From NCBI GenBank assembly GCA_039810425.1, contig JBDHWW010000005.1, forward strand, positions 1-64,000: 64,000 nucleotides of DNA, given 5' to 3'. Position 1 is the first letter of the stretch. Each line of letters begins with the position of its first letter. Positions 45,001 to 51,000 of this stretch are shown here, piece after piece. The position numbers are program-made. The stretch is from Pseudobdellovibrionaceae bacterium. Its GTDB lineage: Bacteria; Bdellovibrionota; Bdellovibrionia; Bdellovibrionales; Bdellovibrionaceae.

Positions 45001-48000
45001 TGCGCCGAGTGGTAGCGGCCATCTTTTGTAAGCCAAATATCAACCGCCGTGATCCAGTTGCGGCGGCCGACAACGCTCAAGACGTAATTGCGGTCCAAGG
45101 TATCGACAACGGCACGAACGCGGCTTTCCCATCGGAAGCGAACAAGCTCTTCGATGCGTGCATAGAAAGAATAATACGTATAGCGATCGGTATTGAGTGC
45201 CGTGAAGCTACCGATCGAAACATCTTGCGGCAGGGCCTCGCCCACCGTGGAAGGAGCTTCTTGCGCGCTTTGCGCATACTCCTTCAGGTTTTTAGCAATG
45301 TCGATTCCCTCAGGATCGTAGTCCTTCGGCTGCTCTTTGCGCGGATCCTTTTGTTGCTTGAGCTTCTTGTCTTTGGACTCTGAAGAATTCTTCTGGCCGG
45401 CGGCGCGGTTTTGAGTCATGCCACTCGCCGCCGCTTGCATCTCTTTGCGGACGCGCTGTTTATCTGCGGAAAGAAAACGCGCAAGATCCGTGTCGTCTTC
45501 TTTCAGCTCCTTTTTCGGAGCTAAGGCTTGGCGAACGATCTGGCGGTCATTTTTCTTTTCAGCTTTCTGTTGCGCGGTGGTTTTGGGCGTTTCGACCAAT
45601 TCGATCGTGGTAATATCAATCGGTTTTGGCTCAAAATAAGGCGCCCCCTTATCCAAGACAAGGGCCAAGAGGGAATGGACGATCAAGCTGAGGATCAAAG
45701 CGCGCAAAATGCTCATCTTGTCTCACTATAGAACGATCCTGGACTAAAATCCAAGTCTGACGGCTAAAGTTGAAACGATTTCTGCCGAAAAGTGATTGTT
45801 GCTATCGGGGGTAAAATGGCAAAGGTCATTGATATCACAAGTCGTGTAAAGTCTCAGAACTCTTCGGAAAAACTGAAACAACCCGCCGCTCCTGTATTGG
45901 ATATGACGGTGGCGCGTGAAGAAATGCTCAACAAGGATCGTCGTGAAGTCAAAAGAACGATCCTGACCGAGTTTGTCGGCGCTTATGTGGTCCTGCCTGA
46001 GAAGGGTCTCATGAAAGTGACTCTGTATGATATCTCAGAAAATGGAATCGCTTTTGATCTCGGGCTTCAGGAGGGCATGTTTCTCGAAGGCGAAGAGATC
46101 GCTTTCCGCGTTTACCTGAATCATACGACATACTTTCCGTTCACGGTTTCTGTGCTGAACTCCCGCCGCCTGGATGACGAAGCCGTGATCCGTCACGGGG
46201 CTCAGTTTGTAAAAGGCACGGTGAACGATGTTGCGCTTCATCATTTTGTTAAGTTCATCGAGAATGTGAGCGCAGGTCTTCGCAAAGACGATGGTGATAT
46301 CCTCGTTTCAAATATCTCGTAAATTTTCCGGTTTTGTTTTAACCGATAATCTTGAAACCTTTTCGTGGACATTGGCCAGGCCTTATTGTCGAATAGACTT
46401 AAGGCCTGATTCATTTTCGAAGCAAGCCATCCACGGAGGGTAAAAGTTGAGTAAATCCAAACGCAGAAAAATTGTCGTTGATACCAATGTCATTCTTTTC
46501 GATGCTCAGGCCATTCTTCGCTTCGGCGAAGCAGATGTCCACATTCCTATTTCCGTCATTGAAGAAGTTGATAAGTTCAAACGCGATCAAGGTGAAAACG
46601 GTCGTAACGCCCGCCAGTTTAGCCGCTTCGTGGATGTCCTCAGGGCAAAAGGTTCTTTGGCTCAAGGGGTTCAGCTCGACAACAGCGAAACGGTCGTTTA
46701 CATCAGCACGGACTTGATGCTCGGTGGGATGCCCCCGGAGTTTGATCAGGCCAAAGCGGATAACAGAATTTTGAACACGGCCCTTGCTTTGCAAAAACAA
46801 CATCCCCGCACGAAAGTGGAATTGATCACGAAAGACATCAATCTGCGTATCAAGGCGGACGTCTATGGCATTTTCGCCAAAGACTATGAGCCAACCGATG
46901 TTTCCCAAGAGGACATGTACGAAGGCTATCTCGAACTCGAGATTTCTCCGGAGCGCATCGATGCTTTCTACAAAGATAAAAAGTATGTTCCAGACGGGGT
47001 GAAGCTTTATGCGAATCAATACGTGATCATGAAAGACGCATCGAACCCGAATCACTCGGCGATCGGCCGTTACTCGCAAGCGGACCAGGCGATCATTCCT
47101 TTGATCAATCCGTCTGATAGCATTTGGGGCGTTCACGCACGCAACGTCGAGCAGGCGTTTGCTCTCGATAGTTTGCTGAATGATGACATTCTGTTTGTTT
47201 CACTGGTGGGTAAGGCGGGAACAGGGAAGACCCTGATGGCGTTAGCCGCGGGTTTGTTTAAAACCCTGGATGAAGGCCGTTTTCAAAGGCTTCTGGTGTC
47301 GCGCCCGATCTTTCCGATGGGTAAAGACATTGGTTACTTGCCGGGGGACATTGAACAGAAACTCAACCCTTGGATGCAGCCGATTTTTGATAACGTCGAA
47401 TTTTTGATGGGAGCGGATAAAAAGGCTTCTGGCCGGGCGCAAGAGCTGATCAATCAAGGTATGCTGAACATCGAACCGTTGACATACATTCGTGGCCGAA
47501 GTATTCCTAAACAATATTTAATTGTGGATGAGGCGCAAAACTTAACTCCGCACGAGATCAAAACCATCGTGACCCGTGCGGGACGTGGAACCAAAGTGAT
47601 TCTGACTGGAGACGTTTACCAGATCGACAATCCGTACGTTGACTCGGCGAATAGCGGCCTGACTTACGCAGTAGAGCGTTTCAAAGGCCACCCCATTGCC
47701 GGACACGTGACCCTCACTAAAGGTGAGCGTTCCGAGCTTGCAGAGCTGGCGGCAAATATTCTGTAATTGAGAGCAATAGCATCAAGAAAAGTCAAAAATG
47801 TGTTCTTTTTGCAACAGGCAAAGACTTGCCTGTTGCATCTTCTTAGCTTTCTATAAGAGCCTGTCAAAAAAATGAGAAAGGCTCGTTCAGCATGGTTACC
47901 AATAATAACAACGGTAGAGATAAAGAAGTTGGATTTAAGGCGAATGTGGAAGTGAAAGTGACCGACCAAATGGTTCGTCAGTTTGCTGAAATGTCTGGCG

Positions 48001-51000
48001 ACTTCAATCCTATTCATCTCGATGACAACTATGCAAAGACCACGCGATTTGGTCGCCGTATCGCCCATGGCATGATCGTGGGGGCATTGATCTCTCGCGC
48101 CTTGAACGAAAAAATTGGACAGGGTGGAGTTTATCTCGGACAAAACTTAAAATTTGTGAATCCTGTTTTCATTGATGACGTAGTAAACATAGAATTGACT
48201 ATCACCGGTCTTCGCAAGGAAAAGGGAATTGCGACTGTCGATACCACTGCGAAAAAGCAAACTGGTGAGACGGTGGTTAAAGGCGAAGCCATCATTATGA
48301 TGTCTCAATAAAAACTCAAGTATTTGTGCTTTCGATTAAATAATCAAAATTAAGTTTGCACGATGAACTTTGGTTCATATATATTTTTTTGAACATGAGT
48401 TTACCGACGCTACTTTTGATAGACGACGATCGCGAGTTTCTCAAGGCGCAAACTGCTGCTTTTGGCTCGGGCTATGATGTGGTGTCTGTCGACGGCGTAA
48501 ACTCTGCCCTGCAAATTCTCAAGATAAAAGAATTCGATTGTGTGCTGGTTGATTACTTTTTGAGTGATGGCAACGGGCACGATGTTGCAAGTTGGATTGC
48601 GGGCAACATGCCTTGGTGCCCTGTCATTCTGGTCAGCGCGCGCCTCGATAAAAAAATTGCTGTCGATTCGTTTTCCCATCGAGTTTTTGATGTTCTTGAA
48701 AAACCTTATTCTCTTGAAACCGTGTTGGTTAAAGTGCACGCGGCCTTGCTTGAGGCCAAGGAAAAGAAAGAAGTTATCACTCGTAAGTCGAGCCATACTT
48801 GGTCCCTGGACCGCGAAAGAAGAGCCTTCCGCTGCGGTTCTGAAGTGATCATGTTGACTTCGACTGAAGTTAAAATTTTAGATGTCCTCATTCTGGCCAC
48901 AAACCAAGTCGTGTCTCGCGACAAACTGGTGCGGGCTATTTGGGGCTCCATGAACGTCGCCGATAATACTCTGGATACTCATCTGACAAATCTCCGCAAG
49001 AAAGCTCCCTTTTTTAAGACCATGATCAAAGGCATTCGTGGTGTTGGCTATATTTTCGAGCCATAGGAGCAGCTTTGGAAAAATATAAAAAAGCCAGTAT
49101 TGTGGGTCTTTGCCTTTATTTTGTTATTTCCACTCTTATCACATTTCAAGAGTACCCTGCCGTGCTCGAGGGGCGGGAGCTTTATCTCGGCACGAAGATC
49201 ATTTTGCAAATCTGGTTGTTGGGTATTTGTATTTGGTACCCGATGAATCCATATGGTCTCGGGCCGAATATCATGGTGGGCATTCATGTCATCGTTTCAA
49301 ACATCCATGGGCAGTTCTTCTCGCCGTGGTATGTGTTTTCATATGTTGAAATGATTCTGGCATATTCATTTCTGTTTCCGGTGCCGCGAAAGCCCTTTAA
49401 CATTTTGTTGGTTGTGGGAACCGCGGCGTTCTTGGTTATTTCAATCTATCGTTATGATGAAGTCCATCGGTGGATGTACGAATCCCAGCCGATGGACCTG
49501 GTGACCACAACTGTTTCCGCAGCCATAGTTGCGTGGGTGTGCCATAACTTTTTCACCGCGGACCGGACCTATCGTGAAGAGCTCGTTCGTAAATTCGGTA
49601 TTATCGGTGTGCAGGCAGCAACGATCGTCCACGACATTAAAAGTATGCTCTCGGCGCCGCGTCTCTATACGGACCTTTTAAAGCAAAAAATCCCGCAGAG
49701 CGATCCGGAGCTCAGCTCCTTGGTGGATAGTCTTGAAAAGCAACTTATGAATATCAATCGGGCAGTGACGGGGCTTAACCAAGTGGTGGCGTTACAGGAT
49801 CAAAAGAAAGAAGAGTTCTCTATCCGTGATGTTGTCATCGAAGTCGGAGAAACGCTGAGCTTGCAGTCGCGCAATATAGAGCTGCAAACACGCGACGATC
49901 TCCGCATGATCACCGAGAAGGCTTTGGTAAAATCCATTTTGTTCAACATTATGATGAACTCCATCCACGCCTTCCGCCGGAATAAAATCTCGCATCCATT
50001 GATTCGCGTGGTCTGTGATGGCGATGCCTTTGTGATCTCCGATAATGCCGGCGGCTTCCCGGAAGAAATTTTGCGATCGATTGCAGACTATCGTTTTGAT
50101 GCCTTTGATGGGACCGGTATGGGGCTCTTCCTGGTGTGGAATGGAGTGCAGACCCTCGGCGGCCGTGTCTACTTTGCTAATGGGATTGATGGCGCTCAAA
50201 TTCGGATTTCCGTGCCGCTAAGGACCCAAGCGCAGGGTCGCAAAACCCTTGGTTATTTTCTGCGGCCCTCTTAGGGCGACGGGTTGGGTTGCTTCGGTTC
50301 TAATCGGTCGATGGTGGGTATTTGACCCCTTTAAATGTTGATAGCAAGAGTCTTGTTCTCGGTAAAACGCTTACACGCCCAGTTGACGGGCACGGCGAGG
50401 ACCATCCGTCTGTGAGAATGGGGTCTTTTGGCCATCGTAGCCAGCTCTTATCAACATTTAGCGGGACTAGTTTTTGAAATTCAGCCAATGACGCAAAAGC
50501 AAAAAGCGCTTTTGATTGCCTTCATCAAAGGCCCGACTAAAGTTGAGTGCTAGGGGGGGATTACCTATGAAACTAGCAACTATGGGGCTTTTGGGGGCTT
50601 TGGCGTTTGCCACAGTTCAAGCTTCCGCAGCCGATATGCCTTATGCAGACAAAGATTTTGCCTGCATCACTCAACAACAAGCGAAGAAATATGCAAGCGA
50701 CTTTCAAGTCGACGTGGATTCCTTTGGCGGCCTGGAGCTTTGCAATAGCAACGTGGATTCCAAGAAGTTGTTCAATGATTTGCAAATCATTGAACAAGGT
50801 CAGTTCGCGGCCGGGACTTCGAATTTATTGATCAAAGGTTACGTTCCAGCGGATCAGTACTACGGTTGGATGAAATCACAAACGCGCGGTATGAATCGTG
50901 GTAATGACGTGCCTTATGCAACAGCCTACAACCGCTGGGGTTATTTCACGATGCAGGATGGTTGGGCGAAATTGTCCGCTTTAGGCCGCGTAGGAACCGT

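Follow-up and report, generated by a model that had tools for sequence, protein, structure and literature searches.

A PhaJ-like hydratase as the probable replacement of FabZ in the fatty-acid synthesis of most Bdellovibrionaceae

Most Bdellovibrionaceae probably rely on a MaoC/PhaJ-type hydratase, and not on FabZ, for the (3R)-hydroxyacyl-ACP dehydration step of type II fatty-acid synthesis. One such gene lies in the window studied here, a stretch of 64,000 nucleotides from a Pseudobdellovibrionaceae genome (assembly GCA_039810425.1, contig JBDHWW010000005.1; genome completeness 99.88%). Early in the family, an accessory hydratase, PhaJ-like and (R)-specific for enoyl thioesters, would have settled behind the phoH gene. 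Acting on the (R)-3-hydroxyacyl product that FabG delivers, it would run FabZ's chemistry in the direction of dehydration, with catalysis through the Asp37/His42 dyad, and it probably works as a homodimer. Having been made redundant by the hydratase, fabZ would then have been deleted from the skp-fabZ-lpxA cluster, and the hydratase would have become indispensable. Acyl-ACP as the substrate, the homodimer, the chain-length range and this order of events are the parts of the scheme that we infer. Dehydratases of fatty-acid synthesis with the MaoC fold are already known (HadAB and HTD2). No prior report of such a replacement was found in the literature searched.

The fold and the dyad of the hydratase were shown in the present analysis (Table 1). 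The protein matches PF01575 with 92 bits (the curated cut-off is 27) and is the sole match above the cut-off in the genome. Its predicted structure is a single hot-dog fold (pLDDT 92.7). The SGDFNPIHLD motif, reported as intact in the first-pass annotation, is present in the ORF, and both residues of its Asp37/His42 dyad are invariant in 60 aligned sequences. The strict motif of PMC10949391 is missed by one deviation, a Met at a [LIVG] position, where the B. bacteriovorus orthologue has Leu. In the alignment Arg69, which stands where PhaJ and HTD2 have Gly or Ala, shows a conservation of 90% or more, and the Pro of the LPG loop after Ser68-Arg69 is absent from the family hydratases through a one-residue deletion. 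Judging from the alignment, Arg69 and the missing Pro are candidate substrate or carrier determinants. Leu65 and Val130, which we take to be the tunnel residues limiting Aeromonas PhaJ to short chains, align with Leu and Ile in the hydratase; this was counted against the proposal.

The immediate neighbours of the hydratase gene are the PIN-PhoH gene and a response regulator gene. PhoH is not thought to have a role in the function of the hydratase. The hairpin between the two genes is a weak signal (one such site vs 0.7 in shuffled sequences), and a promoter scan was uninformative. At every locus examined the hydratase gene lies outside the fab operon, as had been noted before, and this too counts against the proposal.

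Table 1. Features of the hydratase locus in the window
Feature	Position	Strand	Remark
Hydratase gene, 139 aa	47892..48311	+	MaoC/PhaJ-type (hydratase-2) single hot-dog protein; proposed 3-hydroxyacyl-ACP dehydratase in FabZ's place
Hydratase-2 motif F31-A48 (FAEMSGDFNPIHLDDNYA)	47982..48035	+	motif form printed in PMC10949391
Putative catalytic Asp37 and His42	48000-48002 and 48015-48017	+	inside the hydratase-2 motif
Ser68-Arg69, central helix of the hydratase	48093..48098	+	sequence alignment
PIN-PhoH ATPase gene	46447..47766	+	positional marker; the hydratase gene sits behind phoH throughout the family
Hairpin, 12 pairs, terminator-like	47810..47837	+	between phoH and the hydratase gene

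FabZ and FabA are missing from the genome while fabH, fabD, fabG, acpP and fabF are kept, which agrees with the first-pass annotation. No match to PF07977 was found at E<=10, and the hydratase itself has none; the five kept genes lie on contig C22. A divergent FabZ was rejected, as an unfiltered search with a profile of the family's own FabZ/FabA sequences gave a best E of 1.2. Neither an ApeI-like dehydratase nor PKS dehydratase domains were found in this genome and four relatives (0/5 in both cases). The scan for other hot-dog proteins covered five families of the clan. Four proteins match thioesterase families and were rejected as dehydratases, and a fifth match lies on contig C122, an apparent contaminant.

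The absence is accompanied by a synteny scar: fabZ has been cleanly lost from an ancestral skp-fabZ-lpxA slot. It stands between skp and lpxA in all nine family genomes that hold it and adjoins lpxA in 26/26 sampled loci of other families. In family genomes without the operon fabZ, skp and lpxA are adjacent in all 25 scorable loci (27 were fetched), and in this genome they are 113 bp apart.

The complementary distribution of the two genes was likewise shown. We analysed 121 genomes of the family (Bdellovibrionaceae/Pseudobdellovibrionaceae), which bear other handles than the 61 genomes considered previously. The operon fabZ is present in nine of them and the hydratase orthologue in 107, with no overlap, so the hydratase does mirror the loss of fabZ as had been claimed. 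The stronger claim, that every FabZ-less genome has the orthologue, fails for five genomes with neither gene. We attribute these five to assembly gaps and not to true absence because the phoH locus is unassembled or cut in all of them. The orthologue occurs together with some PF07977 match in nine genomes (three FabA, four FabZ-like genes of secondary clusters and two weak matches), not in three as stated earlier. In one genome, G102, the orthologue is split because a homopolymer run has one A too many; this is most likely a sequencing error, and we rejected it as a sign of dispensability.

The earlier warning about the non-independence of kin is justified, since the pattern within the family is probably a single evolutionary event, as the RpoB tree favours. 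Several independent losses were rejected: the hint of nesting in the PhoH tree is weakly supported. G282 was also dismissed as an independent loss; its contig stops just before lpxA and its MaoC gene is in an unrelated cluster. Outside the family, MaoC genes are commoner than the 3/26 genomes given before: PhaJ-like genes were found in 25/119 genomes, including 17/30 of family f12, where FabZ stays. Across the other families of the phylum, a PF01575 gene is present in 44/46 genomes without FabA/Z vs 101/251 genomes with it. Those in FabZ-less lineages are mostly HadA/HadB-like pairs.

Published data on B. bacteriovorus, where the orthologue is Bd0762 (EP01_RS17740), provide the near-absence of insertions in this gene and its growth-phase induction. 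EP01_RS17740 is listed in the Tn-seq Data Set S3 (genes putatively essential when growth is host-independent), as are acpP, fabG, fabD and a carboxyltransferase/biotin carboxylase; for fabF no fitness value is given. Such values exist for the genes flanking EP01_RS17740, for five thioesterases and for a 3-hydroxyacyl-CoA dehydrogenase, and all of these are dispensable, as is the phoH orthologue. With 18 TA sites in the gene, the probability of a chance absence of insertions is 1e-12 at nominal saturation and 0.004 at one third of it; thus a chance lack is unlikely. One site is recorded, in one of six samples, and therefore the gene is probably outside the 201 counted in the text of that paper. 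The orthologue is putatively essential, and essentiality by itself names no pathway. As regards the functional class of type II synthase dehydratases (HTD2 included), the need for the gene putatively coincides with the need for the synthase, and the searches described above gave no other dehydratase.

Expression of Bd0762 rises from 200 to 2709 RPKM in the growth phase, when fabF is at 2529, whereas the beta-oxidation complex gene Bd1836 shows no such rise. Two observations go the other way: two thirds of the expressed genes are growth-phase-specific, and in the attack phase Bd0762 is not silent, unlike the fab operon. None of the 15 dehydratase rows examined in the metabolic model iCH457 carries a gene. 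Because of the skp-lpxA scar, the putative essentiality and this gene-less step, the replacement of FabZ by the hydratase gains support that does not depend on kinship, and the earlier suggestion that the hydratase is the likely replacement dehydratase is strengthened, with its action on acyl-ACP still presumed.

Several other explanations have to be weighed. The hydratase could be essential for another acyl-CoA step, such as the supply of branched-chain primers or isoprenoid precursors, the dehydration being carried out by an unrecognised protein, perhaps an essential hypothetical one. Many hypothetical proteins are included in Data Set S3, and the five hot-dog families scanned are not the whole clan. 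Furthermore, the nearest relatives of the hydratase outside the family, its sister proteins, are found in FabZ-holding genomes, one of them next to an acyl-CoA dehydrogenase-like gene. However, the five-family search gave no alternative dehydratase, and such a role accounts neither for the lack of the hydratase in the nine fabZ-keeping genomes of the family nor for the near-absence of such a gene from families f2-f11. We consider this explanation unlikely.

The second alternative is related to the enoyl-ACP reductase. None was recognised in this genome and FabI was not found, which makes a second unexplained gap in the cycle. A FabK-like gene was rejected as the sole enoyl reductase: it is below the cut-off here, and according to Tn-seq strain 109J can do without any one of its three FabK-like genes. 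These dispensable genes, the joint absence of FabZ and FabI, and the CoA esters used by the closest characterised relatives of the hydratase would fit a hybrid cycle, in which 3-hydroxyacyl chains would come off ACP, the CoA ester would be the substrate of the hydratase, as it is for PhaJ, and some enoyl-CoA reductase would follow. But FabI is also missing from genomes that hold FabZ (f2 0/26, f6 0/31, G031). Therefore the two losses are uncoupled, and a coupled loss was rejected. In addition, no ACP-to-CoA transfer step was identified, and acpP, fabD and fabG are putatively essential, so that a cycle of this kind seems quite improbable.

We give very little credence to a catabolic or storage enzyme that would pass (R)-3-hydroxy acids of prey lipid A or PHA to beta-oxidation, or supply PHA monomers, with prey fatty acids being used and the loss of FabZ coincidental: PhaJ is the best match in sequence and structure, a beta-oxidation cluster is present in this genome and PhaC_N matches occur in 14/121 family genomes, but there is no such match in this genome and 106 others of the family, phaJ1, phaJ4 and maoC have been removed jointly from P. 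putida, the orthologue is (putatively) needed without prey while the 3-hydroxyacyl-CoA dehydrogenase is not, and the fab operon, itself putatively essential, is intact. The reported lack of a PHA synthase is correct for this genome (no PF07167 match, on which ground a PHA role was rejected) and does not extend to the 14 genomes just mentioned.

If the hydratase replaces FabZ, Bd0762 is a candidate gene for a step left without a gene in the published model of a much-studied and genetically tractable predator. The replacement also suggests that enzymes of the PhaJ type, familiar as helpers of polyester formation that can be dispensed with, are able to turn into an essential dehydratase of synthesis in a bacterium, in parallel with HTD2 in mitochondria, and it warns that a genome without fabZ need not belong to a fatty-acid auxotroph. 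On balance, we lean towards a broader picture, in which a single-subunit PhaJ/HTD2-type dehydratase builds all membrane and lipid A acyl chains in a Gram-negative, as in mitochondria. In this phylum FabZ would have been replaced by hydratase-2 enzymes several times and along two routes, with a PhaJ-type enzyme in Bdellovibrionaceae and with HadAB-like pairs in other families. With FabI and a canonical AccA absent too, the synthase of Bdellovibrio would be a mosaic.

Among known systems, FabZ and FabA share with the hydratase the hot-dog fold and the proposed reaction. They differ in having another catalytic motif and show no sequence match, so the replacement would be non-orthologous. In mycobacteria, HadAB, HadBC and HadBD use the hydratase-2 fold as the dehydratase of a type II synthase that does without FabZ/FabA (PMC10949391). 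The model of the hydratase superposes on HadB with a TM of 0.80-0.83, and its HadB equivalog score is 44.1 bits vs a cut-off of 203. HadB requires a non-catalytic partner, whereas no HadA/HadC-like partner was found among the neighbours of the hydratase gene and the genome has no second PF01575 match above the cut-off, though no genome-wide search with PF13452 was made. HadAB-like pairs belong to other families of the phylum, not to the Bdellovibrionaceae locus. Among solved structures, those most similar to the hydratase are of PhaJ enzymes that act on CoA, a point against the proposal: PhaJ (1iq6) has 43% identity, a TM of 0.89 and an rmsd of 1.2-1.3 A to the model, with the same dyad and single-domain size. 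However, PhaJ is a dispensable supplier of PHA monomers, while the orthologue of the hydratase appears essential, and the hydratase has Arg69, the deletion of the LPG proline and no PHA synthase nearby or in the genome. Human mitochondrial HTD2 (3ir3; E 2.5e-18, TM 0.75, about 29% identity) is the enzyme that the hydratase is proposed to work like, a PhaJ-like single domain in FabZ's place in a type II synthase. HTD2 stands outside the tree sampling, and the relation is given as a likeness with no orthology claimed. HTD2 serves a eukaryotic organelle, whereas the hydratase would have to supply the bulk of membrane and lipid A acyl chains.

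FabZ is missing from G000, the genome of the window, as the first-pass annotation had proposed. This genome is 99.88% complete; it contains no match to PF07977 (the FabA/FabZ family), nothing significant with a profile made from the FabZ/FabA sequences of its own bacterial family, and no detected ApeI-like or PKS dehydratase. Its fabH-fabD-fabG-acpP-fabF operon is intact. The ancestral gene order is bamA-skp-fabZ-lpxA. It occurs in all nine FabZ holders of the family to which named relatives assign the window (Bdellovibrionaceae/Pseudobdellovibrionaceae, 121 genomes sampled); in other families of the order, fabZ adjoins lpxA in 26 of 26 sampled loci, and 116 of 119 genomes match PF07977. 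From 30 family genomes without fabZ in this slot (operon fabZ) we obtained 27 lpxA loci, 25 of them scorable. In all 25, skp stands directly against lpxA, and in G000 the two are 113 bp apart. Because of this scar, the absence of FabZ does not depend on search sensitivity.

In the fab operon on contig C22 of G000, plsX is not at its usual position before fabH, and what we take to be the PlsX and PlsY motifs match nowhere in the genome. On the short contig C122 (L275) long reading frames overlap, as is common in high-GC DNA, and the contig is probably an assembly contaminant.

The proposed replacement, a MaoC/PhaJ-like hydratase, was said to mirror the loss of FabZ genome by genome, and the larger sample bears this out. 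Some match to the window protein is found in 111 of 121 family genomes; four matches with only 27-39% identity were left out, and 107 orthologues remain (four cut by contig ends, one frameshifted). PF07977 gives some match in 19 of 121 genomes, and operon fabZ is present in nine. The 9 operon-fabZ genomes and the 107 orthologue genomes do not overlap. Neither gene was found in five genomes of 72-94% completeness, of which four also have no detected phoH and the fifth has it cut by a contig end. The orthologue lies at most 1.5 kb from PIN-phoH in 30 of 30 loci, and other genes lie 3' of phoH in all nine FabZ holders. Nine orthologue holders have an additional PF07977 match: FabA in three, a FabZ-like gene of a secondary cluster in four and a weak match in two.

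The three FabA genes (L002 in G028, L003 in G013, L001 in G039) are in genomes that keep the orthologue; in G013 fabB adjoins FabA. The FabA copy of G036 (L004) looks like contamination. The conserved secondary cluster (L013-L016, L022-L027), in which ketosynthase-like genes and one patatin-like gene accompany the FabZ-like gene, is common to FabZ holders and orthologue holders. The frameshift, in G102, comes from one extra A in a homopolymer and is probably a sequencing error.

Coordinates of the genes and clusters discussed
Feature	Position	Strand	Details
MaoC/PhaJ-type hydratase gene	47892-48311	+	139 aa; PF01575 match
Window ORF	53399-55669		756 aa; Asn/Gln/Arg-rich low-complexity repeat near N-terminus
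fab operon, C22 of G000	L098:4979-10315
G102 orthologue	L099:3181-3600		frameshifted
Loci noted for the enoyl-ACP reductase	G000:C19:51891-52817 (L307); G000:C18:29960-30970 (L303)
Carboxyltransferase (single-chain), biotin carboxylase and biotin carrier cluster	G000:C1:15765-19390 (L388)
HadA/HadB-like pairs	L318-L337, L339, L342, L350-L362		families f16, f18, f22, f23, f28, f29, f31, f34

We count one event of the FabZ/hydratase switch in the family, two at most. RpoB trees covered 33 of 43 searched genomes (RpoB was matched in neither G023 nor G036), and in them the sampled FabZ lineages fall outside the orthologue holders. FastTree places 22 of 24 together at 88; IQ-TREE gives two clades (99, 96) whose union is unsupported. 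In a weakly resolved PhoH tree, FabZ holders are nested among orthologue holders at 88. Outside the family, 25 of the order's 119 genomes carry PhaJ-like genes alongside FabZ. Family f12 contributes 17 of these, from 30 genomes, and its examined copies lie 3' of an HD-domain-like gene, not phoH. The family's proteins form a group in the gene tree (89/67), and their nearest relatives (88/94) are PhaJ-like proteins of FabZ-holding f30 and f23 genomes. Such kin in FabZ holders, one of them encoded beside an acyl-CoA dehydrogenase-like gene, suggest that the hydratase was probably an accessory acyl-CoA hydratase originally. Among genomes that have FabZ its occurrence is patchy; where FabZ has been lost, all assembled loci contain it.

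The hydratase motif reported earlier (SGDFNPIHLD) is indeed present in the window protein, which matches PF01575, the MaoC family, at 92 bits. The closest solved structures by sequence are Aeromonas PhaJ (E 7e-28), Pseudomonas PhaJ1 and one archaeal protein; HadB matches at 6e-8. The structural model was built on an alignment of 60 sequences and reaches a pLDDT of 92.7; it superposes on PhaJ with a TM of 0.89, on HadB with 0.80-0.83 and on HTD2 with 0.75. Asp37 and His42 are invariant in that alignment. Arg69 and a missing LPG proline are candidate adaptations, although Arg69 is common also to sister proteins from FabZ-holding genomes in the gene tree set. The chain length handled is a real doubt: the protein retains the residues that we take to restrict Aeromonas PhaJ to short-chain substrates.

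One family-locus protein has exactly the sequence of AHZ86826.1/CAE78718.1 from B. bacteriovorus. In the Tn-seq table of Duncan et al. 2019 (PMC6561027), among the rows examined, EP01_RS17740 (Bd0762) is the only "maoC family protein"; it stands between PilZ/hypothetical and hypothetical/DoxD/octanoyltransferase genes, ordered as in locus L099. The gene is listed in Data Set S3, which gives genes putatively essential for host-independent growth, with one site in one of six samples (T1 is presumably the input). Its tier stands below some 200 zero-site rows, and the gene hence probably does not belong to the 201 that the paper's text gives. Zero-site genes include acpP, fabG, fabD and one carboxyltransferase; five thioesterases, three nitropropane-dioxygenase-like genes and one 3-hydroxyacyl-CoA dehydrogenase have fitness values. 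Both neighbours of EP01_RS17740 also have fitness values, and the effect is therefore not a polar one. The gene has 18 TA sites. When the density of such sites is taken from 73 kb of loci, the probability that insertions are missing by chance is 1e-12 for the nominal total of 90,000 and 0.004 for one of 30,000.

In the expression table of Karunker et al. 2013 (PMC3627812), with the column order inferred, attack-phase and growth-phase RPKM are 200 and 2709 for Bd0762, 4 and 2529 for fabF, and 82 and 52 for the beta-oxidation gene Bd1836. Since most expressed genes there are growth-phase specific, the rise of Bd0762 counts as weak evidence. The metabolic model iCH457 assigns no gene on the 15 dehydratase and 12 enoyl-reductase rows examined, and the corresponding text says that lipids are synthesised and the gene for the reductase is not known (PMC7529429).

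None of the 32 family genomes in which FabI was sought has a match, and FabI is likewise absent from the FabZ-holding families f2 and f6; FabV is absent from G000. A FabK-like gene (189 against a cut-off of 453) is conserved in five of five genomes, and all three FabK-like genes are listed as dispensable in strain 109J (PMC6561027). Canonical AccA is absent in five of five family genomes, and single-chain carboxyltransferases are present. The cluster on C1 is likely the acetyl-CoA carboxylase; like-named genes stand in the Tn-seq essential table (PMC6561027).

In the literature the FabG product is (3R)-hydroxyacyl-ACP, and hydratase-2 enzymes are described as (R)-specific and reversible, with an Asp/His dyad. 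The window protein would dehydrate this product, acting as a homodimer; we hold this predicted role as a type II synthase dehydratase to be quite probable. A search of the open-access literature, with subscription journals outside its scope, found no prior report of MaoC/Bd0762 as a FabZ replacement.

Our survey of the phylum took in 351 genomes with a completeness of 90% or more (FabA/Z at E<=1e-10, PF01575 at E<=1e-8). Outside the family, PF01575 is found in 44 of 46 genomes without FabA/Z and in 101 of 251 FabA/Z holders, many of these being long fusion proteins. G257 and G406, with neither of the two genes, are counter-examples. G282 was rejected as a fabZ loss because of an assembly break. 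An lpxD-lpxA junction without fabZ occurs in 9/9 f18, 2/2 f28, one f34, 4/6 f23 and 3/5 f16 loci; both f16 genomes with operon fabZ are without PF01575 and PF13452. In f22, none of the four genomes (G247, G261, G267 and G273) matches lpxA at E<=1e-40, which is unexpected for this phylum. In most of the f18, f22, f28, f34, f16 and f23 loci examined, a HadA-like partner precedes the HadB-like gene; the partner passes PF13452 in eight and weakly matches PF22622 in two of ten pairs scanned. Such pairs, a probable second replacement route in other Bdellovibrionota, also occur in FabZ holders (f29, f31), as further counter-examples. The phylum pattern supports the replacement rule at the level of the fold, not the window protein itself. 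HadB performs the dehydration step in its type II synthase (PMC10949391). The HadB-like proteins of the pairs score 50-59 bits, far under the HadB cut-off of 203. HTD2 is described as performing the same step in another type II synthase, and its fold link to the window protein rests on a structure-database sequence match of the human protein (E 2.5e-18).
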